Program-made: the position numbers and the translations under genes
Assembly (NCBI GenBank): GCA_002780005.1
Contig: PEWV01000025.1
Span: 25,150 to 89,149 of the forward strand
Reading direction: 5' to 3'
Length of the DNA: 64,000 nucleotides
DNA from: Candidatus Aquitaenariimonas noxiae
GTDB lineage: Bacteria > Omnitrophota > Gorgyraeia > Aquitaenariimonadales > Aquitaenariimonadaceae
In this document: in pieces, positions 1-25,059 of the stretch
How positions within the stretch are numbered: position 1 is the first letter of the stretch
Layout: every line of letters begins with the position of its first letter
The notes under the pieces: model-generated
Databases searched by the model: none
Told to the model about the DNA's origin: nothing
Seen by the model: the letters and a program-made list of their open reading frames with translations, nothing else

Positions 1-501
1 TGCCGGGGAATTCGCGCCCAATACCCTTGCGGTTTCGAACTCATCGGTTTGGAGCGGCGCTTCTTCTCTTGCCGGTACGGCAAGAGGTCTAAAAATTGGC
101 TTCCCGCCCTCTTGGTAACCTATAATATAGACGCCGCCGCCTAAATCTTCATGCAGTGTAACTCTGAAAGAATATCCCTCACCCGGCACAGCTTCTATGC
201 TTTGCAGCATACCTGTATTCTCTGCGGCATAAGTAGCTAGCTGCTGCAAGGCTTCGGCTTGAGGGATCCCCCTTTCATGCTGAGCCTGTATAAGCCTGCC
301 TATAACGGAAACGCACGCGTATGCGCGCGGATTTTCTCCGAGTTCTTTTACTATTTCATCCGGGCAGAATGTCGTCGGCTGTTTCAGAGAAAAACTTATC
401 CTGTCCCTGGAAATTTCCGCTACACCCGCGCTCTGGCAGAGAAATATCCACGTCATTATAAGTGAAGCTAATCTTATGAGTTTTTTATTCCTCATATGCA
501 T
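1..501 (-). CDS. N-terminal 167 aa of a fourth giant paralog (signal peptide plus conserved N-module); the gene continues beyond the window start
   Basis: ATG at 499-501 (minus), 6 nt downstream of the TAA of the preceding giant gene (508-510). Translation MHMRNKKLIRLASLIMTWIFLCQSAGVAE..KQPTTFCPDEIV..VPGEGYSFRVTLHEDLGGGVYIIGYQEGGKPIFRP parallels the N-terminus of the 508..11595 protein. The DNA 1..470 aligns with 11200..11590 at roughly 75% identity. Confidence 0.6.
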   Translation of the reverse strand, partial: MHMRNKKLIRLASLIMTWIFLCQSAGVAEISRDRISFSLKQPTTFCPDEIVKELGENPRAYACVSVIGRLIQAQHERGIPQAEALQQLATYAAENTGMLQSIEAVPGEGYSFRVTLHEDLGGGVYIIGYQEGGKPIFRPLAVPAREEAPLQTDEFETARVLGANSPA

Positions 502-507
502 CTTCTG

Positions 508-1038
508 TTACGCCTTTCCTATAAATTCAGCCTCTTCGTCATATCTTTGCCTCAATTCATCGCTCGTAAGCGGTTTCGCGCCTTCCTGGACGCTCAGAAT
601 AAGTTTCAAAATACCATTTTCTTCGCTTTCGGCGACGTACGGTATCGGCTCATGCGGCTTATTCAATAATCGCTTTAAAGCTAATTCTATTATTCTGGTA
701 ACAGGTATATATTGATTTAGACTTTCCCCTTCAATCACTTGGCTATCGTCTACAGAAACAATTTGAGCCTTACCGGCCAAAGAATCAAACATATGTTTCC
801 CCCTATTAGACTCTTTTACAACAGAGACGACCCTTACCTTTTTGCCTGCTTTTTCCGCATCTCTTATATAACTATTTACTCGCGCTGATAGTTCGGTGCC
901 ATCGCTTGCAATTACTACTAAATTCGAAAGGCCTTCTTGGTCTTTGAGTTCGGCCAATACTTTTAGCAGATTCGGGGCATAACTACCTAAATTTCCTATT
1001 GTCGTATCTATGCCCACTAATATCTCTTCGCCGTCCTC
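508..1038 (-). other. conserved C-terminal module (~175 aa) shared by the giant paralogs, copy 1
   Basis: EILVGIDTTIGNLGSYAPNLL..NLVVIASDGTELSARVNSY..KKVRVVSVVKESNRGKHMFDSL..QIVSVDD..YIPVTRIIELAL..KPHEPIPYV..ENGILKLILSVQEGAKPL..RYDEEAEFIGKA* is about 60-65% identical to the C-termini of the 11597..24508 and 24511..34656 proteins. Confidence 0.75.
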
Positions 1039-4000
1039 TTGCGCGGGTTTTGCCAGTCCTCTTAAACTGCTGACAAAGCTTCTAGCTTCTGCTGCTAAAG
1101 ACTGACCCTCGAATGCGCGGCACAAGGCATCGTATAAAACAGGTCCGTCCCGATAATGGTATTGGATACCCGATATCCCGGCTGATCTTGCGGTAGTTAC
1201 ATAATCTTCGACATCGTCTATAAAGACCGCGCGGTCAGCGCTCACGCCGGCCCTTTCCAATGCAGTTTCGAATATCCTTTTGTCAGTTTTCATGCAACCG
1301 ACATCGCATGAAGCAATAACGCCGTCGGCTATCCCGAAGATATCTTTGTATTTGGATGGCATATAGTCCCGATGGATCGGGTTTGTATTAGTAATAATAA
1401 ATATCTTATATCCTCTCTCTTTGAGCGCGGCCATCATATCTGCAACGGGCTGGTTCGCTTCGTATATATCTGAGAATATCGGCATAAATTCCTCAAATGT
1501 CATATTGAGGTTAAAAATCTTTTTCAGATTCTGGAAATATGCCTCAGGCGTTACCTGTCCGCTTTCAAATGGAACCAATATCTCATCGGAAAGTATTTTT
1601 TGATAAATAAAATCTTCCGTCTTGTCGGAATATTGCGCGAGAGCCCGCGTCGCTCTGTGGTAATCGACTTTTAATAATATATTACCAGCGTCAAAGAATA
1701 CGGTATTGACAGCTGCCGGAGCAGGAAATTCGTATGCAACCCGTGAACTCTCTGCCTGAGTTGCCAAAGCGCTGAAAGCACTCGTGTCGTTCACCTCGAT
1801 GCCCTGTGACGCCAGAATACGTTCAAAGCGTTTCAAGAATTCCATTCCCATTTCGGCGCGTGTCAGATTTGTATCGTTAGGTTCTCTCGGGTCAAGCTCA
1901 AAATACTTATCGCCGACAAGAAAATCGGCGAGGAACCTGTCGCACCAGGTATGATAATATTCCAATATATAGCGGTATGCATACCATTTCATGAGCCCTC
2001 TATCAATGCGATTAGTCTGGCCCAGTTCTATGTAACCATCTATAATGCAGTCCGCGAGATAATCAACAATACTCATTAAAAGTTGCGGGTCATCATTTAT
2101 ATCGCCATAATTCATCACAACCATATATGTCGTTGTGCGAATTGCGATAGCTAAATCATTAAAAAGTCTGGCCGGTTGAGTACTGTCCGGATCTAGCCAG
2201 GAAGCTACATATAATTCACCCGTATCGGGTTTTCTTTTAAAGATCGCGTTTTTAGGCCTCACATCATTATTATATATGCCGGTACCTATATTTACCTCGT
2301 TATCCGGAAGATAGCGCCTCGCATTAAGATCATCAAGGAGAGGAGATACGCGTTTTTCATATCCGGACATCCTATCTCGCTGCAATTCAACTTTTCGCGA
2401 CGAATCCTGGCTGAGACTTAATGTAACACGTTCGCCGCTTAGGACAGAATTCAGATACGACCAATGGTATTTAAGCGATGTCATGTTAGGCAGGGGCGTC
2501 ATCCATTGATCCGACTCTATTGAATTATACATATTATCTATTACAGCTATGGATCTGCCTATATTGTAAATCGCTGTAAGCAGGTCTCTTTCCGGAATGT
2601 CTTCTAAGGTGAGGTATGTTTCTATTTCACCCGGGATCCCCTTACTCACGCGCCATACAGCCCCATCAGCGTCGCGGTACAGCTTTGTTAAAACCCCGCT
2701 GCGACATGCGCTTTTAACATTAAGAAAATCTAATCGATCCCAGTCTTCCGGCAAGACTGTCTCATTCTGCAATCGTTCCAATAATTGTAAGTTATGATCC
2801 ATTGCCTCAACGTTAAAAACTGAGTTGATTTTCTGAACAAAATACTGATATTCAATGCCTTCCTCTTTAATAACCAGACGGTAGGTACGGTTGATAAGAC
2901 CGAATTCGATTGTTTGACATGTGCAATTTTGAGGTGAAGCCTCATATGTGTTTTCAAATGCGTTAAAAATATCCATTACTTCTTTTGCCTCAAGGGTCGG
3001 TGTAACAGCAGACGACTCAACGCCTGCCCTGCCTTCAACGCTCACTCCGGTTTCGGCATCGCGTTCGGCCTTTATGACCCTGCGCCTTGATTCCATAACT
3101 TTGAAAGCCGCTTCGCAAATATTCGGCAAGCCGGAAGCAGCAACGCCGTAAAACCCGTATTGCTGTATAAGAAGGCGAATAAAATAAGGAATACCCGGTT
3201 GCTGCATGTCTTCCTTTAATGCAGCTGACGAAAGGCCATCTATCGGATTTTGTATAGTTGCAAGTGGAATTACAGACTCTACGCTTTCAAGCCTCTTTTG
3301 CAATTCCTCACGGTGATTTTGCCGCGATATCAATGCGACACCAATGCTATGCGAAGGCGACAATCTTTGCTCCGTCACCAATGGTTCAAATCTCCGCCAT
3401 AATTCATCTCCGTACTCGTCGCCGCCGATGTAATATGCATTAACTCCTATATCAGGATTTACATCCAAAATCTCAGGAATATATTGAACGCTTGTATCGT
3501 CTCTTTTTGAGCCGATGGGTGAAAATTGAACGATCGGCGCAAGACGGCTTGTCATCGCCTCTATAAGGCCAAAACGAACTGATTCGCTAGACAATCCGGA
3601 TTTATATGTCGGGGCGCCTCGCGATATTATAATTAATTTATCCAATTTTAAATCAACTATACTTTGAAGCATGACTGCCAAATGACCCCAGTGCGGCGGG
3701 TCACCCGCGATCGGATAAAATCCCACGCGAAGCGGCCGGTCCGGCAAGGCGCCGGATATTACATTTGTATCAGGGTCAAAACTAATTTCGGGGTGTATTT
3801 CGCCGGATTCTATCAAGCCTTGGATTTGCGTCAATAATGCATTAATCGTTGTTTCTATTTCCGCTAATTTTTGACGGCCGGGCTCTGCAACTATAAGCCC
3901 TTCCAGTTCGAGGTCCAGATCGAAAATACCCGGCGCTAAAATCGAGGGCGCTGTTTTAGCGGCGCCTAAAATCTTACGGATTTCATCCGCCGCTTTACCA

Positions 4001-7000
4001 AGTTTCGCCCTATCGTAGCTCCAGTGCTGTAAAAGGCGGTCATTATCTATTTGTATATTACAAATTCTATTTAGAGTTTCTGCGTCTTGAATTTGAAAGA
4101 ATAATGGCGAGAGGCGATATTGCGTAGACTTGCCTGGCCTGGGCGGCTCGATAAGCTGAAGTATGCCTAGCCGCTCCAAGGCTCTTAATTCATTTGAGAT
4201 TGTGCTCCTAGCGTAAGGTTTACCCGTCTTAGAGTTTTCGCTTCTCCATTTTGGGACATCCGCAGTACCATTTATAGCGCTCGTAATCGTTATTGGTTTA
4301 TCTCTTAGGGTGTCCCTGCTACCAAACAAATCCCGCAGCGCTTCGGCCGGCGAGCCTTCAGGACCTTTCGCTTGCATGAACTTGCTTTGCACCTCGGCAA
4401 AAATCGCATAGGCGTCTTGTCCGCCTTCTAGCGCTAAATATTCATCATGCCGCTCTTCCATAAGGCCGTCTATTATTCTACGCGCCTCATCACTCACGCG
4501 ATTATATTTTTCATGCACTTCTGCGCTGAATTCTTCTTCTCTGCCCTTACTCCTTAAATCCATAAGGTCATTTGTAAATAATACCGGCGTAAAGAACGAC
4601 ATAGCATCCGCATCCCTTAAGACCGCAGAATCTTCTATTAAATGCGCCAGCGTAGCTTCTTGGGCCGGTAAGGGTTCAGGCATAGTGTCTTTTCTTATGC
4701 CTTTCTCGTGGTTTCGTATCAGCAAATCCACGTTCGCTATTAATCTTGGGTCTATTCCTAATAATTCCAATAGCGACCTTGCAAAATCTGCGGCCATACG
4801 GGGATGTTGTATCGGTTTATAATAATTCTGATGCCGCGGGCTATCAACCGGAGGCTCATCCTTGATCGCGACATAATACCCGTCAAAGAACCTGTCAGCG
4901 TCGTGCAGCATTGACGCGATCAATAATTCGGGCGATGGTTCGGCCGCTAGCCTTCTAACAACATCCGGGAGCGCCTGCATGTGAGGCGACATATTTGCCC
5001 TGAATAATGGGTCCGAACAATTGGTGATTTCGCATAATCTTCCCAATAACCATTCGACTTCACTGACAGCTTCATCGCCGGTTACAATTCGTTCTTCCCT
5101 GGCACTAACCTTTTCTTCTATTTCCTCTCTTAATTTCACAAGTTGCGCGTCAGAATCCTCTTTATTCGCGGGATCGGCAAAAGCTTCTTCGTATTTTACG
5201 CCATCTAGTCCAACCCCTATGGTAGACTGCACCGCATAAATACCTTCGATCGTAACTTCTGGCGCACCTTCAGGCACTTCAGCTTCACCTTCGATAGCTG
5301 CAGTTATCGTAGCATCAAGATGGTTCCCTGCCTTATCCTGGACCTCTGAGACCTCTCCGTTCTTTACAATTATGATAATTTCTTCATTTGCGTGCCCCGG
5401 CACTTTTATGCGTGAAGTTTTTCCTCCGGGCCCGACCTTGCCTCCTATATCTTTAGTCGCCATTGCGCCCAGGCGAACTCTTTTAATAATGTGATCTTTA
5501 AGTTCGGCAAGCTTCTCCGGTGAAAGCATCTCCCAAAAAGAATCCACTAATTGGCCTTCGGCATTATAAATGAGCGCAAAATTGCAAGTATCTAAAACCT
5601 CCCTACCGGCTCCTAATATTCTCACCTGAGTCACCACGCCATCGATCAAATCAATCTCGACCTCATGCCCTTTATAATTAGTAAACGCTGCCCAATGCTT
5701 GCCTAAATGCAAACCTCCGGAAACATCGTTCAGCCAGAAATGCTTAATAGTGCATGTCCCGAACTCTTTAAGGTCATCAATTGTATCTACCCGGAAAAAT
5801 GATGCCTTCAAATTACCTTCAGGGTCATAAACTAGACTATACCGCCTATCTTGTCCCTCGACTATATTACCTGCGCCATCGAGCAAAGTCGCCCTGCTCA
5901 CGATACCATTCTCAACGACAGTCAGGGCCCCTCGATGATCCGGATACTTATCTATCGGGTATTGTGAAAACACAACAGCGCCCTGGCCGGCTGGGCCGCC
6001 TAGATTTATTACGCCGGCCTTATTTAGTTTAAATCGTTTTATCGTAACATTTTTCAGGCTTAAATATGTCCCTTCTGCAAGCGTATCCCAGAAAGAATTG
6101 AACAATTCTCCTTTTTCGTCATACATAAGCGCAAACTCATGATCTTCGAGTAAGTTATCTTCCTCATCGTATATCCGCACCCTATCATATTGACCTTGGA
6201 TCACATCCAGCTCAACTTTCTTACTCTTATGTTTTGAGAAATGAGGAATAGGTTTTTTCTTTGCTCCTACCGCAAGATTGCCGAACTTATCCAGGCGTAA
6301 ACCCCTTATTGTAACACCGTCATATTCTTTAAACCTTGTAGAGCTGAGATTGCGAAGGAAGGAATCAACGAGTTTGCCGGACTTCTTATCGTAGACTAAG
6401 CAGAATGGCCGAGGAGTCCTTTCGCCTGTCTCTTCATTCACAAGTGTAACTTCCCAAATTTGGCCTTCTCTAACTTCGATAACCGCCTGGTGATATTTAT
6501 AACCTTCTCCCATCTTTACATTTCGTCCGCCTATGGTTAATGTACCATCTTCTTTAACATAGTGATCCCGGATCTCTACGTTGTTCAATTTAGCAAATTC
6601 CGGTTTTTCGATCTTTCCATGGAACGTCTTCACCAATGTTCCGTCAGGCCTATATATAGTACCCAACTGAATGAATTCCACCAATTTGTCACTATCATCA
6701 AATATCCACACCCTATAAGGATGGCCTTGGAGGACTTCGAACTGAACTTTATGTCCAGGATAGTTGCCGAATCTGAACACGTCTACGCCCCCGATACCCA
6801 ATTCGCCTTGCGGTTTTAAATTATTTCCTGTAATGACTACTCCATCATCCAAAGTCGCTAATTGCTCTATGGTGAATTGATCCGAATTGGCAAAGAGCTT
6901 TTTCCTGCTTGAAAGAAGCGCTTGAGCTAAAACCAATCTTTCTTCCTCAGGTGCGGAAAGTATGCTCTGCACCGTAGGAGCCGTTGCTACTGTGGGAACT

Positions 7001-10000
7001 GTTACCGCATCCATGTACAGAGTCATATCAGGGGCGGCAGTAACCGCTTCCATCTGCGATGTTGTAAATTCAGTATCTATCCAGCCCAGGGTAAGGTTAT
7101 ATTTTGCCTCGAGGTATGGCACGAGGGCATAGAGTTCGCCCGGTTTATTAATATCTAGGCGCCGGGTCATTTCCAGCTGGCCTTGGCGGCCTGTAAAATT
7201 TGCCGGCACTTGAGCCAGCAACGCTTCCAGCCTATCCAGTCTTTCAACAGTACACCTTATATCGTGCCAACCGTATTCGCTTATAAACTCAGGTTCGCCG
7301 AATATTCTATACATGTCAGCTAGATTGCTTACGTGGACAGTTTTCGCGACCTCTATCATCCCGGCAACACCCCTATAAGAAGCAGGGGCTGCCTCGAGCA
7401 TGTCCTTTAAATCCCAGAATTTTATCCAACCGACCTGTTGGATCTGGATACCCAAACGACTGCGTACCTCTCTTGAAAGCCTTTCGCAAATCTTGGGGCT
7501 CGCTAATATCTGTGCCCTTCCAAGCCTTATATAACCGCGCTCCACGGCAAGCTCAATATCTCTGGCCAGATAAAAACCTGACTGGCGGCCGGTATATAGC
7601 TCGAGGTTATTCAAATTTTTCAGATCTATCTGGCCCCATCGTGTATTAAACACCTCTCTACCGTCAGGAACTATCACCCTTTCCCCGTGTTCCATTGCCT
7701 GCATTAATTCGTCCAGGCTGTAAACACGCGCCTTGGCCCGGCGTTCATTTATCGCCTGACTAAGGTCTTGGGTAGCGAAACTATTCTGCCGCAATCCTTG
7801 AATATAATTTCTTGCATGCGCAAGAATTAATTTCTTTTCTCCTGCCCCGAAATTGATCGTTAAAACCCTCTCCTCGCCTTTGCCTTCAACGCTGATTATC
7901 CGCCCTTCGCCGTAATGCAGATGCCATATCTTCTGGCCCGGCAAGAGAAGCGGCGGCAGCCTGTTTCCGTGCCTTTGTGTAAATTCCTCCCATTCCCTAT
8001 CAAGCTTTCCCCGGCCCCGGGTACGGGCCGCATTTTCGACTAGTTCCTGCGCATATCTACCAGGCTCGGGTCCGGAATAGTCTGCCATTGTGCGCAATAT
8101 AGAAGATGCCTGCCACGGGTTAATAATTTGTAAATAAACGAAGCGCTCTAATTCCGCGGCGTAGGCTTCATAATCAAAACGTTCAGGAAAACCTACCTCT
8201 CCACCTGTTGTTTCTTCAAAAACGCTAAATTCTCCGCGAGTCAGCTTTCCCTCATGCGCCGAAAGCTTTAGATTCGCCCTGCGTTCGGCCAAGCCTAACT
8301 GTTGATTTATATAGCTTCTTATGCACTCCCGCAATAGCCCTTCATTTTCGTATGGGCCTTGGTAATTTTCAGGGAAGGCCTTTTTTTGGATCTCGCGGCA
8401 GGCCTCGTGGTCGTAAAACGATTCTAGCGCTTCGTGTAAAAGATATTCGGCAACTAAAGAAGTTTTAGTTTCCCCGGAGCTATAACTTTCCACATGCGAA
8501 AGATATCGCACGAAATCTGCGGCATAGCCTAACATCACCCGCTGGCCGCCTAATCTTTCGCCATTCATTGAAATATTTCTTAAAAGCGGGGCGTGTGAAT
8601 TAAATCCCAATACAAAATTATCTTCCTCTGGCGGGATATCCCTTGAGGTAATAATAACAGACCCGAATTCATACATATTTTTAGGTATAAGAGTCATCAT
8701 AATTCCATTTATCTCGTCTTCGCTCAAAAGTCCTTTGAGGCGCGCCCTTATAAATCTGCGCAGATTGTTTAACGGAATATTGGTGTGCCTAAAATTAAAA
8801 GGTTCTATGTCCCCGTTTTCTATTATGCTTTGCAATTCTTCAAGCGCGATCTCGCCTTTTAAAATATATCCGCCGGCAGTATCAGCAGGGCCTGTTGCCT
8901 GGCCCTCCATACCAAGGAGAGGAACAAACCTGTATTCCATGATCTCCCGCGCTAACATAACCGTCTCCTCGCCTGACTCGTCTTCTTTTGCTCTCTTCTG
9001 TATTAAATTAAGAGTGCCTCTTCCGGTTTTTCCTGTAATGGGTATAACTATAGCCCCACCGTCTTTAAGCTCGTCTCTCAAGGCAGCCGGTAAACGGGGC
9101 GCGCCTGCTGTAACCATTATTCCGTCAAAACTCATTTCTTCTCTGAAAAGCGGAGCGCTTCCGTCCCCTACAATAACGTGCACATTATTCCTGCCGGCCC
9201 TGGTTATATTCTTATGGGCATCCTTAGCAAGGCGCTCCAGGGTCTCAACCGTATAAACCTCTTTCACTAAAGATCCTAAAATAGCTGCCTGCCAACCGCT
9301 GCCGGTCCCAATTTCTAAAATAACCGCATTTCTATAATCAGGAATGTTCTCGATTAAGAGCGCTGTCATTTCTGCAACCATAATAGGGCTGGAAATTGCC
9401 TGCCCTGGTAGCGGAGAACTTTCATAAGCAGAAGCTATAAGCCCCGGAGGAATAAAATTGTGGCGCCTATTCTCCATCATGGCATTAATAACATCTCTCA
9501 CTATATCTTCCCTGTGATTTCTCTTTAAGAGTTCCTCCTTTATGCTTGCATAAAGCATCGCCTCTTTACTTTGAAGTTCTTCTTCAGTCATATCTCGGCT
9601 GGCCATCAGTTTATGGGTCACTGCTTCTGAAACAAGTCCAAAAGCTGGTAAATGCGTAACTGAATCTTGCAAAGAGGTTATATCGCGTGACATACTGTCT
9701 ATTCTTGAGATAAGAGGAAGGGTGTGTTCGCCTCCTCTTCTTACAAGGATCCCCCTTGCAGCATTAAAGCCAACTGTCAGCGTACTCATGCAGGATAAAA
9801 ATGCCTCGCCACTCCAGCGATTTAAGCCCTCAATCTTTATTCCGCGAAGATCTTGCAACACGCGGCTGATTAATGTCAATAATGCCCTTATTTGAGGAAT
9901 CCCGGCATCGCCGATATCAGCTGATAAGGTTTCAATGTTTTGGATTAAATTTCTTACAGCCTCCTCGGCTTTAGCTGCTTCCCCTCCGGGCCCTTTTTCG

Positions 10001-11595
10001 GCAGGCTGGGTTGTCCTGTCAGATGCCGAGACAATCCCGGTATCGGGAAGCTGGGCCTGGCTAGCCTTAAGCATTGCTCGGGCCTGGGCCACCTGGGCAG
10101 TTACAACTTGGGGATCAGCAACAAATCTGGGATTAAGACCAAATGCAGACTGTTTTTCTTCACGCATACCCAAAAATGCGAGGTATCGCCCTATTGCATA
10201 ATAATTTGGCTTTTCTTCATATCTGAGATGTTCCCTGTGAAAATCCCTTACATGGCCTAGGTACGGCCGATCAAAGCTCAGCATATCTCTTTTAAGGAAA
10301 AATCTCATAGCAAGACTATAGGTGCCATCCTGGCTGTCTCGATCCTTTCTATTTACCAGCTCTTCAACGAGAAGCATGGCTGCCTCTAGATGAGTAGCTT
10401 TTATCTTATGTGTCGCCGCATAATCAAGAATAAACTGTTTCAGCGCCTTCCTTGCGATCAAGGTCGCTACCATCTCGCTATTTACTTCAGGAAGAACGGC
10501 TTCGCCCCTTGCCTGCATGATCAAACGCATCTGGTGAAGTTTCAATTCAACCAGTTCGTGTATTATCTCGTGCTCTATAAATAAGGAGGCGGCTGCCTTG
10601 AGAATTTCAGGATCGCTGGCTGCTTCAATTAAATCCGTCGAAAACCAATCATATATCTCTCTAGTCTCTTCGTATCCGCTCGTCCGCATATCATCAAAAT
10701 AGGAAAGCACAGAATCTACTGTATTTGTTGGAATATGTTCGCCTCCTGCTATTCCTGATAATTCATCCAATACATCTTTTAAATGTTTATTCACAATTAT
10801 GCGCTGGCGTGTAATATCGGCATTATTATTTAAAGGGTCTGTAACAGAAACAGCCGTAACATTCATGCCTTCTCCCCAGACTACATCAAGACTAGCTCCA
10901 TCAGCGTAATAATCTGCATATACAGCATTCTCCCCCCGGTCTCTCGATACTAAAATATCCCACATAAGCCCGACCGATGAACGTAAATACATGAAATCCA
11001 GATCTACAGCCAATACCGCATCCAGTTTTCTGTGAATTTCGGCAACTATTTCCTGCTCGACGGGTTCATCGGTTTCTCTAAATCTTAAATTTGCTTTTTC
11101 ACCGCCTGTTTCATAACCTCTTTGAGAACCTGATGCTTCGGCATGACCTGTATCTTCTTCCGCATAGGCCTGAACGGGCCTAAATATATGTTTTCCGTCT
11201 GCGTCATAACCTATAAGGTATACCCCACCGCCTAAATCTGGATGCAGTGTAACTTTGAAACAGTACCCTTCTCCCGGTACTATCTCAATACCCTGCAACT
11301 TATCAGCATTTTCACCTACATAGGCACTAAGCTGCTCTAATGCCTGGGCTTGAGGGACTCCTTTGTCATGCTGAGTCTTTACTATCTCGCAAAGGATAGC
11401 GACCGAACTATACGCAAGAGGCCTGTCTCCTAATGCTTCTACAATTTCGTCAGGGCAGAATGTGGTAGGCTGTTTTAGGCAAAAAGCTGTCTCCGGGTGC
11501 GAAACCCCTGCGAAGCTTATATTCTGGCAAAGGAATATCCAGCTTGTTATTAAAGCTACTATTTGTATAAGTTTTTTCTTTCTCATGCGAATCAT
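508..11595 (-). CDS. giant (3695 aa) secreted multidomain protein with PCMT-like methyltransferase, five beta-rich repeats, HD phosphohydrolase, wHTH-like module, HxGH nucleotidyltransferase, HAD-like hydrolase and the conserved C-terminal module
   Basis: Uninterrupted 11,088-nt ORF with ATG at 11593-11595 and TAA at 508-510. N-terminal Sec-like signal peptide (LIQIVALITSWIFLCQNISFA|GVS). Motifs read directly: HEIIH (aa ~342), VILEIGTGSGWQAAILG (aa ~758-775), LHDADRFF (aa ~2230), GDPPHWGHLAV (aa ~2631-2641), KIFIITNT and VFIDDVEDY (aa ~3397-3465). No obvious TM helix after the signal peptide. Confidence 0.85.
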   Translation of the reverse strand: MIRMRKKKLIQIVALITSWIFLCQNISFAGVSHPETAFCLKQPTTFCPDEIVEALGDRPLAYSSVAILCEIVKTQHDKGVPQAQALEQLSAYVGENADKLQGIEIVPGEGYCFKVTLHPDLGGGVYLIGYDADGKHIFRPVQAYAEEDTGHAEASGSQRGYETGGEKANLRFRETDEPVEQEIVAEIHRKLDAVLAVDLDFMYLRSSVGLMWDILVSRDRGENAVYADYYADGASLDVVWGEGMNVTAVSVTDPLNNNADITRQRIIVNKHLKDVLDELSGIAGGEHIPTNTVDSVLSYFDDMRTSGYEETREIYDWFSTDLIEAASDPEILKAAASLFIEHEIIHELVELKLHQMRLIMQARGEAVLPEVNSEMVATLIARKALKQFILDYAATHKIKATHLEAAMLLVEELVNRKDRDSQDGTYSLAMRFFLKRDMLSFDRPYLGHVRDFHREHLRYEEKPNYYAIGRYLAFLGMREEKQSAFGLNPRFVADPQVVTAQVAQARAMLKASQAQLPDTGIVSASDRTTQPAEKGPGGEAAKAEEAVRNLIQNIETLSADIGDAGIPQIRALLTLISRVLQDLRGIKIEGLNRWSGEAFLSCMSTLTVGFNAARGILVRRGGEHTLPLISRIDSMSRDITSLQDSVTHLPAFGLVSEAVTHKLMASRDMTEEELQSKEAMLYASIKEELLKRNHREDIVRDVINAMMENRRHNFIPPGLIASAYESSPLPGQAISSPIMVAEMTALLIENIPDYRNAVILEIGTGSGWQAAILGSLVKEVYTVETLERLAKDAHKNITRAGRNNVHVIVGDGSAPLFREEMSFDGIMVTAGAPRLPAALRDELKDGGAIVIPITGKTGRGTLNLIQKRAKEDESGEETVMLAREIMEYRFVPLLGMEGQATGPADTAGGYILKGEIALEELQSIIENGDIEPFNFRHTNIPLNNLRRFIRARLKGLLSEDEINGIMMTLIPKNMYEFGSVIITSRDIPPEEDNFVLGFNSHAPLLRNISMNGERLGGQRVMLGYAADFVRYLSHVESYSSGETKTSLVAEYLLHEALESFYDHEACREIQKKAFPENYQGPYENEGLLRECIRSYINQQLGLAERRANLKLSAHEGKLTRGEFSVFEETTGGEVGFPERFDYEAYAAELERFVYLQIINPWQASSILRTMADYSGPEPGRYAQELVENAARTRGRGKLDREWEEFTQRHGNRLPPLLLPGQKIWHLHYGEGRIISVEGKGEERVLTINFGAGEKKLILAHARNYIQGLRQNSFATQDLSQAINERRAKARVYSLDELMQAMEHGERVIVPDGREVFNTRWGQIDLKNLNNLELYTGRQSGFYLARDIELAVERGYIRLGRAQILASPKICERLSREVRSRLGIQIQQVGWIKFWDLKDMLEAAPASYRGVAGMIEVAKTVHVSNLADMYRIFGEPEFISEYGWHDIRCTVERLDRLEALLAQVPANFTGRQGQLEMTRRLDINKPGELYALVPYLEAKYNLTLGWIDTEFTTSQMEAVTAAPDMTLYMDAVTVPTVATAPTVQSILSAPEEERLVLAQALLSSRKKLFANSDQFTIEQLATLDDGVVITGNNLKPQGELGIGGVDVFRFGNYPGHKVQFEVLQGHPYRVWIFDDSDKLVEFIQLGTIYRPDGTLVKTFHGKIEKPEFAKLNNVEIRDHYVKEDGTLTIGGRNVKMGEGYKYHQAVIEVREGQIWEVTLVNEETGERTPRPFCLVYDKKSGKLVDSFLRNLSSTRFKEYDGVTIRGLRLDKFGNLAVGAKKKPIPHFSKHKSKKVELDVIQGQYDRVRIYDEEDNLLEDHEFALMYDEKGELFNSFWDTLAEGTYLSLKNVTIKRFKLNKAGVINLGGPAGQGAVVFSQYPIDKYPDHRGALTVVENGIVSRATLLDGAGNIVEGQDRRYSLVYDPEGNLKASFFRVDTIDDLKEFGTCTIKHFWLNDVSGGLHLGKHWAAFTNYKGHEVEIDLIDGVVTQVRILGAGREVLDTCNFALIYNAEGQLVDSFWEMLSPEKLAELKDHIIKRVRLGAMATKDIGGKVGPGGKTSRIKVPGHANEEIIIIVKNGEVSEVQDKAGNHLDATITAAIEGEAEVPEGAPEVTIEGIYAVQSTIGVGLDGVKYEEAFADPANKEDSDAQLVKLREEIEEKVSAREERIVTGDEAVSEVEWLLGRLCEITNCSDPLFRANMSPHMQALPDVVRRLAAEPSPELLIASMLHDADRFFDGYYVAIKDEPPVDSPRHQNYYKPIQHPRMAADFARSLLELLGIDPRLIANVDLLIRNHEKGIRKDTMPEPLPAQEATLAHLIEDSAVLRDADAMSFFTPVLFTNDLMDLRSKGREEEFSAEVHEKYNRVSDEARRIIDGLMEERHDEYLALEGGQDAYAIFAEVQSKFMQAKGPEGSPAEALRDLFGSRDTLRDKPITITSAINGTADVPKWRSENSKTGKPYARSTISNELRALERLGILQLIEPPRPGKSTQYRLSPLFFQIQDAETLNRICNIQIDNDRLLQHWSYDRAKLGKAADEIRKILGAAKTAPSILAPGIFDLDLELEGLIVAEPGRQKLAEIETTINALLTQIQGLIESGEIHPEISFDPDTNVISGALPDRPLRVGFYPIAGDPPHWGHLAVMLQSIVDLKLDKLIIISRGAPTYKSGLSSESVRFGLIEAMTSRLAPIVQFSPIGSKRDDTSVQYIPEILDVNPDIGVNAYYIGGDEYGDELWRRFEPLVTEQRLSPSHSIGVALISRQNHREELQKRLESVESVIPLATIQNPIDGLSSAALKEDMQQPGIPYFIRLLIQQYGFYGVAASGLPNICEAAFKVMESRRRVIKAERDAETGVSVEGRAGVESSAVTPTLEAKEVMDIFNAFENTYEASPQNCTCQTIEFGLINRTYRLVIKEEGIEYQYFVQKINSVFNVEAMDHNLQLLERLQNETVLPEDWDRLDFLNVKSACRSGVLTKLYRDADGAVWRVSKGIPGEIETYLTLEDIPERDLLTAIYNIGRSIAVIDNMYNSIESDQWMTPLPNMTSLKYHWSYLNSVLSGERVTLSLSQDSSRKVELQRDRMSGYEKRVSPLLDDLNARRYLPDNEVNIGTGIYNNDVRPKNAIFKRKPDTGELYVASWLDPDSTQPARLFNDLAIAIRTTTYMVVMNYGDINDDPQLLMSIVDYLADCIIDGYIELGQTNRIDRGLMKWYAYRYILEYYHTWCDRFLADFLVGDKYFELDPREPNDTNLTRAEMGMEFLKRFERILASQGIEVNDTSAFSALATQAESSRVAYEFPAPAAVNTVFFDAGNILLKVDYHRATRALAQYSDKTEDFIYQKILSDEILVPFESGQVTPEAYFQNLKKIFNLNMTFEEFMPIFSDIYEANQPVADMMAALKERGYKIFIITNTNPIHRDYMPSKYKDIFGIADGVIASCDVGCMKTDKRIFETALERAGVSADRAVFIDDVEDYVTTARSAGISGIQYHYRDGPVLYDALCRAFEGQSLAAEARSFVSSLRGLAKPAQEDGEEILVGIDTTIGNLGSYAPNLLKVLAELKDQEGLSNLVVIASDGTELSARVNSYIRDAEKAGKKVRVVSVVKESNRGKHMFDSLAGKAQIVSVDDSQVIEGESLNQYIPVTRIIELALKRLLNKPHEPIPYVAESEENGILKLILSVQEGAKPLTSDELRQRYDEEAEFIGKA
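1156..1713 (-). other. HAD-superfamily hydrolase-like domain in giant gene 1 (aa ~3295-3480)
   Basis: FFDAGNILLKV (motif I-like), KIFIITNT (motif II), K..IF (motif III Lys) and AVFIDDVEDY (motif IV) in canonical order. Confidence 0.45.
3196..3738 (-). other. cytidylyltransferase-like (HxGH) nucleotidyltransferase domain in giant gene 1 (aa ~2620-2800)
   Basis: VGFYPIAGDPPHWGHLAVM..LIIISRG resembles the NadD/TagD/CoaD G-x-F-x-P-x-H-x-G-H signature. Checked at 3681-3718. Confidence 0.5.
4696..4998 (-). other. HD-domain phosphohydrolase-like region in giant gene 1 (aa ~2200-2300)
   Basis: LIASMLHDADRFF..H..Y..IQHPR..RNHEKG with H...HD...H...H spacing. The HD codons were verified at 4900-4905. 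Confidence 0.5.
5416..6765 (-). repeat. five tandem ~90-aa protein repeats (beta-rich, unknown function) inside giant gene 1 (aa ~1611-2060)
   Basis: Recurring pattern hhxVxhxxG...VxIxD.....h......FxLhYD..GxLhxSFxxxL in segments starting NYPGHKVQFEVLQG, YHQAVIEVREGQ, KKVELDVIQGQY, HRGALTVVENG and GHEVEIDLIDG. Each ends near LVYD..G.L..SF. Confidence 0.6.
8926..9498 (-). other. protein-L-isoaspartate O-methyltransferase (PCMT)-like domain inside giant gene 1 (aa ~700-890)
   Basis: SAM-binding motif I ILEIGTGSGWQAAIL, followed by VHVIVGDG and FDGIMVTAGAP, in the order and spacing typical of Pcm-type class I methyltransferases. Coordinates were checked codon by codon against the DNA at 9361-9405. 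Confidence 0.6.
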
Positions 11596-11596
11596 T

Positions 11597-12136
11597 TTAC
11601 GCGTTTCCTATAAATTCTGCCTCTTCGTCATATCTTCTTCTTAATTCCTCTTCGCTCAAAGGTTGCGCAGGAGGCAGCATAATAAATTTCAATATTCCAT
11701 CCTCTTCCCTTTCTTCAACGTAAGGAATCGGCTCGTAAGGCTTATTTAAAACCCTCATTAAAGCGCATTCAACGATTCTTGTTATCGGAATAAATTGGTT
11801 GAGCGTTTTTCCGTCTTCGCTCATTATTCTCGTATCATCTACCGAGATAATCTGAGATTTGCCTTCTAGCGAATTAAACATGCGCTTGGCCCTATTGTCT
11901 TCCCGCACAATAGCTGCAGCCCTTACCTTCCTGCCTGCCCTTAAAGCATCTTCTAAGTATGCATTTAAATGCGCCGAGAGGACATTTCCTTCACCTGCAA
12001 TCACGGTTAAATTATCCAACCCTTCTTTTTGTCTAAGCTCAGTCAATATTGTAAGTAAATTCTGCGCATAATCCCCAAGATTGCCTATTTCCGTATCAAT
12101 GCCTACCAATAGCTCCTCGCCATTATCTTTAGCTTC
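11597..12136 (-). other. conserved C-terminal module, copy 2
   Basis: EELLVGIDTEIGNLGDYAQNLL..NLTVIAGEGNVLSAHLNAY..KVRAAAIVREDNRAKRMFNSL..QIISVDD..FIPITRIVECAL..KPYEPIPYVEEREEDGILKFIM..RRYDEEAEFIGNA*. Confidence 0.75.
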
Positions 12137-15100
12137 CTTGGCTAGTGCCCGTATATTCTCGACAAAACGTTCGGCTTGAATCCTACCCGGTTCTGCTTTC
12201 CCTTCAACTTGAGGCAATATAATCTTAAATGTAGTTCCTACTCCGGCTTCAGTATCAACATCCATATCTCCTCCGAAACTTAAGGCGAACTGGCGCGATG
12301 TAGCAAGGCCGTGGCCTTTTGATAAGATACCTGTGTCTTCCTTATCGCTGGAACCTCTCACAAAAATAGCTTTTGTTTCAGTTTGGGTCTCAGGATCCAA
12401 AACTTTTTCTAACATCTCGGGTTTTCTTATGCCGCCGGCATCATCTTCCACTTCTATTAAGACCTGGCCATTAGACGGCTTTAGCCTAACAGTGACCTTA
12501 TGCTCGGCTCCGGCTTCGACATACCTGGGTATATTGGTCAAGAGGTTGCTTAAAATACGCCTCAAGCCTCCGCGGCTTGCCTTCACAATAAGCCCTTCCT
12601 GGGGCTTCTCAAAATATATACGAATATTTTTATCGTGAAATTCCTTGCCTCTCGCTTGCAGGAAACCGCCAAGGAAGGCGCCTAGCTCTATATTTTCCAT
12701 TACATAACTATCCAGCATGTCAAGCCCTGATTCGGCAAACTCAAGCGCAGCCGCCGAGAAATCGCCTTCAAAGGATTCTCTGCATATCTCAAGAACAGAA
12801 GGATCTGTAATAGCATCCAGCCTGGTTGGGTTTTCTGTAAAATAAACTTTCACCGCGCCATATGCCTGCCTTAATTCATCGGCAAACGCCTTGCCGTCTT
12901 CTACGACTGCATTCCAATCACCTGTCTCGCGGCCGTGGTAATAAGGCCTTTTTCTCTCCTGCTGTGTAACTTTTATGCTGTCAAGCAGCGTATAAACTGC
13001 CATGAATTTTTCTTTTTCGCTCGCATCTGCATCCGGCCTTAGATTATCTTGCACATAAGCTAACCAGCCATAGAGCTCTGTCATCGGCTGCAGCACATCA
13101 TGAATAAAAGCGACCATCTTCACGGATTCCTCTGTTGGCTCAACAGTTACGGCCGGCTGTCCCAATGGGGCCTTCGCACCTTCTGCAGTTCCTTGAGTGT
13201 GCATAAGCTCGCTCCGTATAGACTGAAACACTGCAAGCGTCTCTACACCTTCCTTACTCTGCCTGAAGGTTTCTTCTCCCGCAGCCACAAAGGCATCTGC
13301 GCGAATCTTGTCTTCCGGAACAAGGCGCGCGTATTTATACCTTATCATAGCGTTGCCTTCGCCTTTTCCTTTGTCACGTTCGAGCAGAATATAGGAATTT
13401 ATTAGAAGTTCGGGTATAAATTGAGAAATAGAATCTGCTCTTTGCAGGAGATTCATATCCGAAGCTGCCTCCTGCTGGAATCCATTTTCCGCAGCCACTT
13501 CTTCTGTAATACCCGTCTCATGACGCAAGATAAGTATTTCAACGTCCCCTAAGACTTTATCGCTCACTCCTGCTTCTCTAAGCCACTTCAAGGCGAAATT
13601 CGCTGACAATCTCGGATGCTGATTTGATTTGTAATGCAAGTATTGAGGGGTACCGCCTTTAAAGCCATCGGACGGGTGCACGTAATAACCCTCAAAAAAT
13701 CTGTCAATATCGTGGAACAATCCGGCAATAAGAGCTGCCGGATCAGCTGAAGGATCAATCTCCCTGATGATCCCTGGTATAGATCTCATGTGTGGCGGCA
13801 TATTCCTAATAAAAAGTTCGTCTCTGCAGTTTTTATTGGCGTCCATCCAATCGAAAAGCCATTGGGCTTTTTCGGGATCTGTCATCTTATTTAAATTTGT
13901 TCGGTTTTCTTCAATAGCCGTTCGTAACCTTCCCAGTATCTCATCGGATTCTTGCCGATGTGTTATATCTATTGGTGCTGTGCACCTCATATGTTCCGTA
14001 ATTTTGTCTCTGGCCATAGCCAGCCTACTTTCACTATACGTACAGTGCTGCATTACATAATCGCCTTCTACGTCTATATCGCAGATTCTATCCACAAGTT
14101 CTTCGTCCTGTATCTGGAAAAATATATTAGTAAGATAATATACGTTTGGTTTCCCGCGAACCGGCTCTCTGGGCTCGCTGTCAGGTGCATCCTTTATTGC
14201 AAGAAAACCTAAGCGGCGAAGAGCTTCGAGCTCATTCGCTATTACAACTCGCGCATAAGGCTTGCCTGTCCTTGTATTTTCCCGTCTCCATTCACCTTGC
14301 GCGCTTCGTACGGTTATTGGGTTAATCCCTATCTGACTCCTGTGAGCGAATAAATCGCACAGGGCTTCTGCAGGCGAGCCCTTAGGCGAAGCTAGGCCGG
14401 AAAATGCTGTAGTTACGCCATGCCACCCTTTCTTCGACTCAGCTGTTATTACGGGTGCCGGTTGGGTTGTAGTAGAAGAATCCGGAAGAGTACTCTGACC
14501 TAAAATTTTGTCAACCATTTGCCGCAAAGCATGCACTTCTTCTGCCTGTAATTTGCTCACCTCATCATAATGTCTCAAAGGCTGACTGCTTAGCCTAGAC
14601 GACCTCTGTAAGGACGGAGCATCGATCCGAATATTACAAAGCCGGTTAACAAGATAACGCGGCATTTTTCCCTTCAACTCTTTCCTCAGACTTATCTTAT
14701 GCGTTGACGAGTTTCTATCTATATTGACTATTCCTGCCTCCTCTAGATTTGCTATTTCAATTCTGACCGTTTCGTAACTGAAAACCCCCTCGCCGAAATT
14801 CTCCTGGTTCTTAAAACGCAATTGTTGCAATTCGCTGATCGTTAAAGCTCCTCCGCTTTTAAACCTGGTTGCCAAAACTTGTAGCTCAGGAGTAGGCCAA
14901 TCTTTGGTCAAAAGAATAGACTTCAAAAATTCAGCCGGCGAACCTTGCGGATACGTACGGTGTGCGGCTGCATAAGGCGGTTTGGATTCAACATTAATAA
15001 TATAAGAGTAAAGATTACCCCAATAGGCTTTGACTACAATATGGTAGATAAGATAGTCTTCGACCTTCATACCTAAAAGATCTTCTAATTCTACCAGACC

Positions 15101-18100
15101 TACTGAGCCGAAGAATATGATCTGTCCGCCTGGTTTTAAAACCCTTAAGACCTCTTGCCATGCGGATACGATAAATTCTTCACTTTGTCCTACAAAAACA
15201 TCGGATAAAAGTAAAATTTTGTCTACGCTACTATCATTTAGCGGAATGCCCCTCAAGGGAATATTTTCTGGGTTGCTCCTAAAATCTCTCTGCAGAAAAC
15301 GAATATTAGATTGTCCCGGAATAGACGCATCTGCATAAGCAATAGCCCTTTTTAAATTCTCAGACCGTGCATCTATCCCGTAAACCATTACTTCGGGATT
15401 ATTCCTTGCGATGTCAACTGAGTCTTCTCCGCCACCGCATCCTAAATCCAGCACCACTTCCCCGCTTCTAAATGCTACTCTCTCCAGAAGAGCTCTTTTC
15501 TTATCGATTATGTTGGCTGCGCGTTCCATTGATGGATCGCTTCTTCGCCACGGATATCCTATTACGACCCCATCTATCTGCGGTACTATATCTTGTTCAT
15601 CTTTTTTCCCATTCTTAAAAGCCTCACTTATTAATCCGACAATATCGCGATGAAGCTGGGCATATTCTTCTCCCATCTCACGTCCGGTCAATGTCAGATA
15701 ACTCCACAATTGCCAGAGTTCTATAGGCGTTAAAACGGCGCTGCTCCGCCAGGATTCAAGTAATCTTTCTGAATCTTCGATCTCCTGCGCCGTAAAGGTG
15801 CCATAATGCTCCAATATCTGCGCAACCTTATCGCCAAACTCCTCGAATCTTTCCTCTAAAAGTCTGGCCTGATTTGCTGATAAATAGGGGTGTAAAGCCC
15901 TCATCATTTCAGCTACCTCTTGTTCCACTTCTTCTGTTTCGCCGTTGGTAAGTTTCTTTTCTCTCGCGTGCCTAGCTTCATGACGAACCATCAAGGCTAT
16001 TACTCGGGTTAAATAGTTATATCTTCCGATATTATCCCGCACCTTCTCGCGTGCCCTATCGACCATAAGCTGCCGCATTAACGCTAAGGGGAGATAACCG
16101 TTTTGCTGCGCGGGAAATTCACCTTCTCTGAAATGGCCGCCCAGGCCTCTTCCGGCATGACCTATCACAAATCTTGCTACAGGATCCGCAACATCTTGCC
16201 ACAGGCAATAACTTCTGGCTTCGGGAGGAGAACGAGCGTCAGGGTCTAAAAGATATATATTTGTATCTTTCAAGTCTTCGGAGGCCTCAGCCTCTTCAGG
16301 AGTATCCTTATAATAATTTAATGTCAGCCCTCGCAAGTCAGCTAAGAGCTTGTTATCTTCCTGGGATTGTCTTGTTTCGCTTCCTTCGGTATCGCTTATA
16401 TAGCAACCCGGTTTTTCTCCGTCAAATATGCGTTCGAGCATAGGATTTGTGATATTATCGTGATCTTCTTCTCTAACGCCGGGTCCGGCTATGGTGGAAT
16501 GAGGTTTTAAAGGCCTGATGGGGCCTCCGAATAATCTATCGATTTGATCCTGGCTAAGGTTCCGCTGGGATCTATCCCTGCGCTCAAGATAAACCCTCCT
16601 GACACCTTCTCTTCTTAGCGCATTCGCATATGCGGTTTCTATGACGAGCCATCCTACCGTTGCTCTTCTTTCAAATTCATCCCAGTAGTGCGGTGTATCG
16701 CTATCCGGCTTCATGTTCGTCACAGGCCAGGCGATATTACCTTGCTCATCAATACGAGCAGGCCCGCAAATATAAAGATTACGATCAAAATAGCGATTTA
16801 ATAAATGGCGCGCTGTCAATCCGTCTCTCCGGTGCACTACCGGACGCAAGGCGCTAAGCCGGCGCAATGTATCTTCCCACAATTCCCTATCCCCTTTTCT
16901 TTGCCGGTCCCTGGCAACATTCTCCGCGTAAGCGGCAAAAGCCATATGTATGTCACGCCATACAATAAGAGCATCCGGCCGCCATTCTATTCTATACATG
17001 ATCGCATCGTGCACGGATGACACTCTTTCTTCAACAAAATCACGTAGCTTTCTATGTGTCTTGCGCCATTTGCCGCTTCTTATATCTCCAATAACATCTG
17101 ACATCAGGAAATAGGTCTCATAATCAATAAAACAATGCGATAAGATGCCGCGCCTTATGCCCCGCACTATGCGAATAGGGTTACTCAAAAACCATACTAG
17201 AAGGATTAGAAACACATCTTTAATAATTGTGGTAAAAATAATCATCATTCTTTGGATGTTGTATGCCTTCTGCACATACTCGAATTTATCAAGGAATGTC
17301 ACATGGTATCCGGCCCTTTCTTTGCCCTCCATCGCGCGGTTAAAGGCGCGTTTCTCAATATCTATCAATTTAAACATGGTTATGTTGTCGAGGATCTTTT
17401 CGCTTATCCAATTATCATAGTAAGGCCATAATTCCCGATAGTGGGCGGTTTCGTGCTCTATAACACTGTAAATGTTGGCCACGCTCGAGGTATCTAGATC
17501 TTCTTCGGTAAGCTCTTGCACTTCTTCTATTGGGATATCAACCTTGCCAGCGCGCACAGCATTCTCTATCGCTTGCCTGCTATACTCGACGGGATTTATG
17601 TTATACCGCACACCAGCCCCTCCTGGAGCGAAAGTATAGGCGTAGCCTCTGTTCATTCTTCCTGTATAACCCGCCACCCATGGAGGAGTTGCCCCGTCCC
17701 GGTAAATCGGAACATCATTCGCTTCCATCCAACTGAACATCTCGGGATCGAGTTCTCTCATAGCCATAAGGGCTGTGCGCAATTTAGGCCCATATAAGAA
17801 TCCTTGGCCATCTCTTTTATCAATATAGCGGCTTCCTGACCTCATCTCATTACCCATTCTATACCAGTCCGGCCTTCTAATTGTCCGACGTGCTTTTGCG
17901 CGGTCGGCATTTTCAGGGATTTTATATCTAATAGCCCTATCATTAGCTGCGCCTAACTCCTGCTGCACTCTTACATACTGAGGAATGAAAATCGTCACTA
18001 ATAAAAGAATAACTAATAAGGCACGCTGAAGGATCGTAATTTCTCTACCGGACCGTAGCTGCTTAAGCATAGCTCCCGCTGAAAAACTGACCATAGCTCC

Positions 18101-24510: not shown

Positions 24511-25059
24511 TTAGGCTTTTCCTATGAATTCCGATTCTTCCATATACCTTCTTTCAAGCTCTTCTCTTTCAAGCGGTTTTGCATCTTCCTGCACACTAAG
24601 TATAAGTTTTAAAATACCGTCTTCCTCAACCTCTTCAACGTATGGAATCGGTTCATGAGGCTTGCTTAGTATTTTCGTCAAGGCGCGCTCTATTATTTTA
24701 GCGATTGGAATATAGTAATTCAGGCTGCCTGTAAAGTTATCTATAACACGACTATCATCAACTGAAACAACTTGAGCTTTATCGACTAATGATTTAAACA
24801 TCCTTTTCTGCCTATTGTCCTCTTTCACTATAACTACTGCCCTAACCGTCTTACTGTCCCTTTGCGCATCTGAAAGATATGTATTTAATTGGGCCGACAG
24901 AATAGTTCCCTCACCGGTAATGACCCTTAAGTTTTCCAATCCCTCTCGGTCTTTAAGATTAACCAATGTCTCAAGCAGGCCTGGCGCATAATCTTTCAGA
25001 TTTCCGATTGTCGTGTCTATGCCCACTACTAATTCTTCGCCTTTATCTTTTGCTTCTTT
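24511..25059 (-). other. conserved C-terminal module, copy 3
   Basis: EELVVGIDTTIGNLKDYAPGLL..NLRVITGEGTILSAQLNTY..TVRAVVIVKEDNRQKRMFKSL..QVVSVDD..YIPIAKIIERAL..KPHEPIPYVEEVEEDGILKLILSVQEDAKPL..RYMEESEFIGKA*. Confidence 0.75.

Follow-up and report, generated by a model that had tools for sequence, protein, structure and literature searches.

How do the giant genes of the Omnitrophota come into being: through duplication of whole genes that subsequently diverge, or through rearrangement of the domain cassettes from which they are built? The question is raised by a stretch of 64,000 nucleotides (nt) of Candidatus Aquitaenariimonas noxiae (contig PEWV01000025.1, positions 25,150 to 89,149; hereafter the window), in which three giant open reading frames (ORFs) follow one another on the minus strand: g1 (508-11595, 3695 amino acids (aa)), g2 (11597-24508, 4303 aa) and g3 (24511-34656, 3381 aa as called). 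A fourth tandem paralog, g0, starts at nt 501 and continues past the window edge, so that the first 167 of its residues lie within the window (1-501). The genes of this array, in the order g3-g2-g1-g0, are co-directional and tightly packed with spacers of 1-6 nt. In our reading, which we consider likely, they are mosaic genes that arose by duplication of a common frame and rearrangement of their interior cassettes, and in which the 5′ ends of g2 and g3 were homogenised comparatively recently. The remainder of g0 was read from an 80-kb contig of a public assembly (L082), which is 99.99% identical to window positions 1-7211, belongs to the same genome and extends g0 as two halves, g0a (1097 aa) and g0b (1103 aa), separated by a 1-nt frameshift and followed by rpmB and recG.

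All-against-all BLASTP together with a phmmer scan of 240-aa windows served as a protein dot plot, and blastn with a word size of 7 as its DNA counterpart. The segments shared between the genes reach E-values of 1e-9 to 1e-74, i.e. they are not chance matches, while for more than 75% of each protein neither BLASTP nor window phmmer detected a counterpart in the other giants. Conservation is found, to begin with, at both ends. The C-terminal domain of about 195 aa is common to all four genes at 50-64% identity (g1 aa 3503-3695, 511-1089; g2 aa 4110-4303, 11600-12181; g3 aa 3186-3381, 24514-25101), and all four open with a signal-peptide-like hydrophobic segment, as judged, like all hydrophobic helices mentioned below, from a hydropathy scan only. 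The N-terminal domain, of about 125-145 aa, exists in two types. Type I is common to g0 (aa 2-147, nt 61-498) and g1 (aa 3-148, 11152-11589) only, at 56% aa identity (E 5e-57), and type II is shared by g2 (aa 57-181, 23966-24340) and g3 (aa 104-228, 33973-34347) at 83% aa and 85-86% nt identity; beyond the signal peptide, no relation between the two types was detected (hhalign probability 1.6%).

Five further segments are shared in the interior. Module A is found in g2 (aa 3186-3340, 14489-14953) and g3 (aa 3002-3156, 25189-25653) by BLASTP, phmmer and hidden Markov model (HMM) searches, at 59-65% aa identity (E 1e-55 to 6e-63). Module B, which opens with a “PxGSPAE” head, occurs in g1 (aa 2406-2535, 3991-4380, HMM E 1e-63, within a shared segment spanning aa 2404-2542, nt ~3970-4386), in g2 (aa 3369-3499, 14012-14404, by HMM and phmmer, within a segment spanning aa 3367-3506) and once in each half of g0, at 44-51% identity overall and 44-49% for the g1/g2 pair (E 2e-32). 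The HD-like domain, as we call it here, measures about 270 aa and is present in g1 (aa 2140-2416, 4348-5178) and g2 (aa 3513-3779, 13172-13972) at 31-34% identity (E ~1e-35). Segment X′ links g1 (aa 902-1106, 8278-8892) to g3 (aa 2601-2812, 26221-26856), where it stands in another context, at 28% identity (BLASTP E 8e-9; phmmer core E 1e-9), and a GNAT-like segment is shared between g0a (aa 250-451) and g0b (aa 520-721) at 30% identity. The sharing of module A between the second and third genes, and of module B and the HD-like domain between the first and second, had been proposed in a first-pass annotation of this DNA and was borne out. That annotation had also placed module B ahead of the HD-like domain in both genes, and here our results differ: in the direction of translation, g1 reads HD-like then B, whereas g2 reads A, then B directly after it, then HD-like. 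The swap can be read from the annotated ranges themselves, since on the minus strand 4998 to 3976 in g1 runs from HD into B, and 14401 to 13499 in g2 runs from B into HD. The two halves of g0 are swapped likewise, with the GNAT-like segment ahead of B in g0a and behind it in g0b. Thus the four copies of B stand after a GNAT-like segment (g0a), before one (g0b), after an HD-like domain (g1) and before one (g2).

The interiors, of 2-4 thousand residues, differ from gene to gene. From its N-terminus, g1 carries the signal peptide, the type I domain, a protein isoaspartate methyltransferase-like domain (PCMT, aa 687-895, 8911-9537, PF01135, E 9e-35), X′, a PcrA-tudor-like domain, beta-rich repeats, the HD-like domain, module B, a cytidylyltransferase-like domain as the downstream neighbour of B (aa 2632-2745, 3361-3702, PF01467, E 1.1e-3 and 19.6 bits, just below the cut-off of 21), a HAD hydrolase (aa 3353-3475, 1171-1539, PF00702, E 7.5e-14) and the C-terminal domain. 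In g2, the signal peptide and type II domain are followed by GNAT, a polytopic membrane region (aa 602-2451, 17156-22705, Kyte-Doolittle scan), an S-adenosylmethionine (SAM)-dependent methyltransferase as the upstream neighbour of module A (aa 3014-3134, 15107-15469, PF13847/PF13649, E ~1e-11 to 1e-12), modules A and B, the HD-like domain, HATPase_c (aa 3981-4100, 12209-12568, PF02518, E 2e-14) and the C-terminal domain. The order in g3 is signal peptide, type II domain, pseudouridine synthase (PseudoU_synth_2, aa 641-787, 32296-32736, PF00849, E 2.6e-14), HEAT repeats, transmembrane (TM) helices, X′, module A and, almost directly after it, the C-terminal domain; the Pfam content of g0 consists of GNAT-like segments and HATPase_c_2. 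Many distinct enzyme families are thus found in each polypeptide and no single Pfam family is dominant by copy number in g1-g3. The observation of the first-pass annotation that the flanking enzyme domains are different in each case holds throughout. Internal hydrophobic helices number about 15 or more in g2 and about 6 in g3, and none was seen in g1, whose positively charged N-terminus leads into one hydrophobic segment, with no TM helix after it. If g1 is exported, its PCMT, cytidylyltransferase-like and HAD domains, which are SAM-, CTP- and phosphate-dependent, would be located outside the cytoplasm, where these cofactors are not expected. The repeats of g1 (aa 1584-2093, 5317-6846) lie directly upstream of the HD-like domain and comprise five to six divergent units of about 90 aa, with an apparent period of 90/180 (units of ~90-180 aa in window-phmmer self matches, E 1e-9 to 1e-18). 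They have no Pfam match, and a similar stretch is present in an external Omnitrophota protein, P0017 (aa 1003-1321, 23% identity).

Could all this have come about by tandem duplication of whole genes and their divergence, the shared segments being slow-evolving islands in otherwise collinear homologs? The genes are indeed tandem and co-oriented, they have the C-terminal domain and the signal peptide in common, their shared internal cassettes are all old (see below), and the order X′-module-C-terminus is collinear between g1 and g3. However, the plots are not collinear throughout, which was the comparison on which the first-pass annotation had proposed to decide: B and the HD-like domain change places from g1 to g2, as do B and the GNAT-like segment within g0; the two N-terminal types have no detectable relation; and different Pfam enzymes occupy non-corresponding positions, with 0, ~15 and ~6 internal TM helices in g1, g2 and g3. 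We therefore regard simple duplication as very improbable. Such a history cannot account for the changes of order, for two types of N-terminus or for interiors that are unrelated to one another, and it is for this reason that we read the genes as mosaics.

The ages of the cassettes were compared by Nei-Gojobori estimates, and the modules were placed in a neighbour-joining tree of 34 copies (6 from this genome and 28 from other long proteins) with 200 bootstraps. Synonymous divergence is saturated (pS 0.70-0.90) for A, B, the HD-like domain, X′, the type I domain and all comparisons of the C-terminal domain, and consequently nearly all of the rearrangement must be ancient. At the DNA level, blastn found about 67% identity between C-termini, 70% for the type I domain, 70% over 219 nt for part of module A and 86% over 366 nt for the type II domain, and none for the copies of B or of the HD-like domain. 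Recent recombination of the A, B and HD cassettes was considered and rejected, given the saturated synonymous sites and the lack of B and HD similarity in DNA. The type II domain of g2 and g3 stands apart with pS 0.42, dS 0.62 and dN 0.08. Its block (23976-24341 against 33983-34348) is 86% identical in DNA and has sharp boundaries, while the DNA identity of the other shared blocks is at most ~76%, and ~70% or less over stretches longer than 70 nt. Compared with module A and the C-terminus of the same gene pair, the N-terminal domain of g2 and g3 is accordingly far younger, as a dS of 0.62 against saturation indicates. Its low dS and its sharp boundaries suggest that gene conversion, or replacement of the cassette, took place at a later time, the type II domain being the only cassette that appears young.

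In the module tree, the four copies of B form a single clade against all external copies in 199 of the 200 bootstraps, with the g2 copy as its outgroup; the two copies of A form a separate clade in 200/200, and A and B never group together (0/200). The B subtype has expanded to four copies within the array, as follows from the monophyly of these copies and their four different neighbours. Furthermore, g2 combines the A lineage, which it shares with g3, with the B lineage, which it shares with g1 and g0, so that the per-module histories, which the first-pass annotation had proposed to compare, are incongruent. Its broader claim, cassette exchange between tandem paralogs, is supported as regards mosaic assembly and not supported as regards ongoing exchange of A, B and HD, for which synonymous sites are saturated, no B or HD similarity in DNA is left and the HD-like copy of g1 is nearer to one outside the array.

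That last point leads to another possible origin, in which the cassettes did not pass between the tandem paralogs but were acquired independently, from a phylum-wide domain pool or through horizontal transfer. The HD-like copy in another organism, which follows GNAT-like and IspD domains, has 57% identity to that of g1 compared with 34% between g1 and g2; the separation of A from B is older than the divergence among the sampled Omnitrophota modules, as their 0/200 grouping shows; and the module family is widespread across long proteins of the phylum. Against these stand the single origin of the four B copies (199/200), which points to spread within the array, the clearly intra-genomic similarity of the type II domains (86% nt), and the uniform GC content of the giant genes (0.43-0.47). 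We find independent acquisition rather improbable as the explanation of the array, and mosaic formation from a duplicated frame remains the preferred one.

A third alternative is duplication with differential loss, i.e. a symmetric ancestor with modules on both sides of an enzyme (for instance B-HD-B or A-B-HD-B), of which the paralogs kept different subsets. The homology of the HD-like domains extends in g1 into a short stretch resembling a module tail, and in g2 into “AKAPLGQPA”, which resembles the module head “AKGPEGSPA”; in other words, there are module-like remnants on the “empty” side of HD in both genes. The position of the g2 copy as outgroup of the B clade is what would be expected of a positional paralog, and external relatives with 2-3 module copies per protein are found. 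Nevertheless, the boundary resemblances are only marginally above shuffled sequences (95/2000 and 74/2000, p ~0.04-0.05), and the module HMM detected no degenerate extra copies beside the HD-like domains. Differential loss also leaves the two N-terminal types, the different enzyme sets and the younger type II domain unexplained, and we judge it unlikely. That every enzyme domain in g1-g3 might be set off by modules was also considered and dropped, as a richer iterated profile yielded no further copies.

What, then, are the cassettes that recur? Modules A and B align to a single profile as divergent subtypes of one domain family of about 125 aa, and we take them as two old subtypes of a single domain whose predicted structure is winged-helix-like. 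The statement of the first-pass annotation that module A is missing from the first gene is accordingly right for the subtype and wrong for the family. Neither Pfam nor NCBIfam gave a significant match to the module, the best Pfam hit being DUF7938 (E 0.1), and one external copy matches Penicillinase_R in Pfam (E 4e-4). The AF2 model of the g1 module B, built from a 13-sequence alignment (pLDDT 85, pTM 0.78), predicts a head helix from the invariant GSPAE, a helix-turn-helix, a two-stranded wing and a C-terminal helix. In a Foldseek search of the PDB, its top 50 matches were almost exclusively winged-helix regulators of the MarR/PadR/ArsR/HxlR type at E 0.04-0.25, with nothing at E ≤ 0.001 (best E 0.038), and PDB sequences searched with the profiles of the module and of the HD-like domain yielded no match below E 0.4. 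The label “wHTH-like” that the module had received is therefore reasonable but unproven: it agrees with the model and with the regulators among the top folds, none of which reaches E 0.001. Module B is predicted to share with MarR/PadR/ArsR-like domains the helix-turn-helix followed by a beta-hairpin wing. It differs from them by its additional N-terminal “GSPAE” helix and C-terminal helix, and by being embedded in giant enzymes where the regulators are free-standing.

The “HD domain” label meets with a similar outcome. H106, H132-D133, H165 and H197-E198 do not vary among the three known copies (the H...HD...HP...HE pattern), and a D further downstream (RDAD/RAD) is retained in g1 and g2, the only copies that reach that far. 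In hhalign, the HD, HP and HE motifs come into register with those of a bona fide PF01966 segment (E 2.9e-4, 40% probability). On the other side, there is no PF01966 match and nothing in Pfam at gathering threshold, the g2 copy alone showing a weak, sub-threshold DUF4202 match (E 9e-4, 19.5 bits against a cut-off of 35.1). The AF2 model is all-helical and poor (pLDDT 60), and a fold search with it found no significant match, YfbR and other HD hydrolases being among the top hits at non-significant scores. The domain thus resembles metal-dependent phosphohydrolases of the HD/PDEase clan in its H...HD...H...HE...D pattern (the D only where a copy extends that far) and differs from them in falling entirely below Pfam thresholds and in its low-confidence model. 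From its motifs, its identity as an HD domain is plausible but not established.

Relatives of the module exist outside this genome as well. When its profile was run with full HMMER against 1.84 billion representative proteins, 19 of them scored at E ≤ 0.001; they measure 870-5037 aa except for one fragment of 122 aa and have 1-3 full-length copies each; those with organism names at NCBI (P0017, P0018 and P0020) come from Omnitrophota metagenome-assembled genomes (MAGs). The neighbours of these external modules include DHH/DHHA1, HATPase_c, circularly permuted ATP-grasp, protein kinase and methyltransferase domains, and in P0017 the module is directly followed by a bona fide HD domain (PF01966). 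P0017 is itself part of a second tandem giant array, on an unrelated Omnitrophota contig (L085), in which the middle and downstream genes have in common only an N-terminal domain of 84% aa identity, homologous to type II, and in which the upstream gene ends in a motif resembling the C-terminal domain of g0-g3. Arrays of this kind may, as these two suggest, generally show concerted evolution of the N-terminal domain. Weak matches to the C-terminal domain were seen at the extreme C-termini of P0010 and P0018; its scan against 185,579 species genomes gave no relatives, and a word-indexed search of 5.8 billion proteins returned only g1's own fragment (P0001). At 80 tgt loci from other bacteria, about 15 of them in Omnitrophota MAGs, there was no giant homolog and no ORF above 1300 aa.

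From these results a possible course of events can be outlined. A frame consisting of signal peptide and N-terminal domain at one end and the C-terminal domain at the other would have been duplicated, and interior cassettes would then have been inserted, duplicated, deleted and rearranged at the level of domains, with breakpoints probably at or within the winged-helix modules. Nearly all of these events would be old, the comparatively recent one being the homogenisation of the g2 and g3 N-termini, probably by gene conversion. Judging from the literature on this class of proteins, the conserved ends may function in export, anchoring or assembly, and the enzymes of the variable interior would be the payload; the winged-helix modules could act as adaptors that bind a nucleic acid or protein substrate, or as spacers between enzyme units.

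Several points weigh against this picture. The function of every part is a prediction, and the combination in g1 of a signal peptide with SAM- and ATP-dependent enzymes, with no further TM helix, is topologically awkward. The module-tail remnant before HD in g1 and the head remnant after HD in g2 would permit duplication and differential loss with no exchange at all. The quartet tree of the C-terminal domain (bootstrap split of 50/25/25%) does not support the grouping given by the N-terminal domains, nor does it contradict it. In the saturated cassettes breakpoints cannot be mapped at the DNA level, so we infer the direction and mechanism of transfer. Finally, the exact array is found in one genome only, and giant genes are missing from relatives with synteny at tgt/recJ, which leaves nothing by which to polarise the succession of events.

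Giant, very long multi-domain proteins are described as a hallmark of the Omnitrophota (10.1101/2023.11.21.568195; 10.64898/2026.06.07.730766). In its passages on the subject, the study of Nielsen & Lui 2026 (10.64898/2026.06.07.730766) defines a “multi-enzyme” class of long proteins, catalogued from a threshold of 10,000 aa, whose sequences are unique and whose architecture recurs; a Pfam co-occurrence group of that study, “Module 1”, unites methyltransferase, HATPase_c, GNAT, HAD and HD domains; TM helices or signal peptides are present in most cases. HEAT_2, HATPase_c and HAD_2 are likewise among the commonest giant-protein domains of West-Roberts et al. 2023 (10.1101/2023.11.21.568195). 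The array agrees with the multi-enzyme class, as those passages describe it, in phylum, in the many enzyme Pfams per polypeptide, in the co-occurring set and in its signal peptides and TM helices. It departs from the class in that g1-g3, at 3381-4303 aa, are below the 10,000-aa threshold, and in that g0-g3 are tandem paralogs with common N- and C-terminal domains. We therefore assign it, by content and in terms of those same passages, to the published class, below catalogue length. The multi-enzyme passages of 10.64898/2026.06.07.730766 make no mention of the “GSPAE” module, the end domains or the histories of individual cassettes, and what the present analysis adds, an undescribed domain family and an architecture of conserved ends, is incremental. 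With the Archaeovorin and dockerin-type giants the array shares the phylum and the general character of large, secreted or anchored multi-domain proteins, although g1-g3 are about ten times shorter. No glycosyl transferase or hydrolase, peptidase, NUDIX, C39/S8 peptidase, SecA-like or dockerin domain was found in g1-g3 at Pfam E ≤ 0.01.

Another comparison is offered by MARTX toxins, in which conserved N- and C-terminal regions enclose a strain-variable array of effectors that is reshuffled by recombination. The likeness would lie in the conserved “bookends” around a mosaic enzyme interior, as a functional analogy only. The giants differ in having an N-terminal Sec-type signal and, in g2 and g3, internal TM helices; Pfam scans of g1-g3 revealed neither RTX or glycine-rich repeats nor a cysteine protease domain, and the neighbours recJ, tgt, queA, rpmB and recG gave no sign of type I secretion. 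One could go further and suppose that the module, the two N-terminal domains and the C-terminal domain, none of which is represented in Pfam or NCBIfam, constitute an as yet undescribed, Omnitrophota-specific chassis for exported or anchored enzyme arrays, where the ends would provide for export and assembly, gene conversion would keep the N-termini uniform and the modules would be the junctions for swapping, resulting in a MARTX-like diversification of effectors in an episymbiotic or predatory lineage. This extended proposal we regard as speculative and, taken as a whole, doubtful.

The array is flanked by recJ on one side and rpmB/recG on the other, as part of an Omnitrophota chromosome. Upstream of g3 are recJ, tgt, queA, queH, ruvBAC and yebC, followed by a polysaccharide biosynthesis cluster, and the TGT encoded in the window finds its best matches (57-66% identity) for the most part in Candidatus Omnitrophota MAGs. 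The polysaccharide cluster (42000-60000), which contains glycosyltransferases, Wzy, a flippase, a Wzz/tyrosine-kinase-like protein and an export protein, is set off by a compositional step, with a GC content of 0.37-0.41 against 0.43-0.47 in the giants (1-34000); this lower GC is consistent with a horizontally acquired or variable cluster. An origin of the giant ORFs as assembly chimeras is unlikely because the array recurs in independent assemblies. The split of g0 is identical in three assemblies (ERZ27293393, SRR6261447 and ERZ27293347): the frameshift lies at L082 ~9960-10004, about 3.3 kb past window position 1, directly after “WENKRRP” and within a run of XRE-type helix-turn-helix-like repeats, and it could be that of a pseudogene, of a genuinely split gene or a programmed one.

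At the junctions between the genes (508-530, 11597-11620 and 24511-24535), the final codons are conserved as GAATTTATAGGAAAxGCxTAA, encoding EFIGK/NA and the stop. They include an AGGA motif resembling a Shine-Dalgarno sequence, 8-12 nt ahead of the ATG of the next gene, and its position, together with the spacers of 1-6 nt, suggests translational coupling of the giant genes. The motif would also put an additional constraint on the C-terminal tail at the nucleotide level. At the other end of the array, the called ORF of g3 opens with TTG, no other ATG, GTG or TTG being available ahead of the signal peptide (aa 75-95), and the true start is probably near aa ~70. The first ~70 codons as called (34400-34700, minus strand) resemble a structured 5′ leader rather than coding sequence. 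They hold three strong hairpins (minimum free energy of -83 kcal/mol, z = -5.4 against shuffles) and three occurrences of the 11-mer CCGTTAGAGAA, including a perfect palindrome, CCGTTAGAGAAC-GAA-GTTCTCTAACGG; a promoter-like TTTACA-N17-TATACT lies directly upstream, and comparison with Rfam gave only sub-threshold chance matches. With these features, it may have a regulatory role, as leader or operator, for the operon of giant genes.

A mosaic architecture is what specialists would expect of such genes, and no current view is overturned here. Most giant genes of the Omnitrophota are nonetheless too long and too unique for an analysis of how they originate and diversify, and the four-gene array provides a small, tractable example with conserved ends, countable cassettes and measurable differences in age. 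As we read it, the array shows growth through rearrangement at the level of domains, and not through divergence of duplicated whole genes. In addition, the winged-helix-like domain of about 125 aa marks this class of proteins across the phylum and could be used for finding and dissecting further members.

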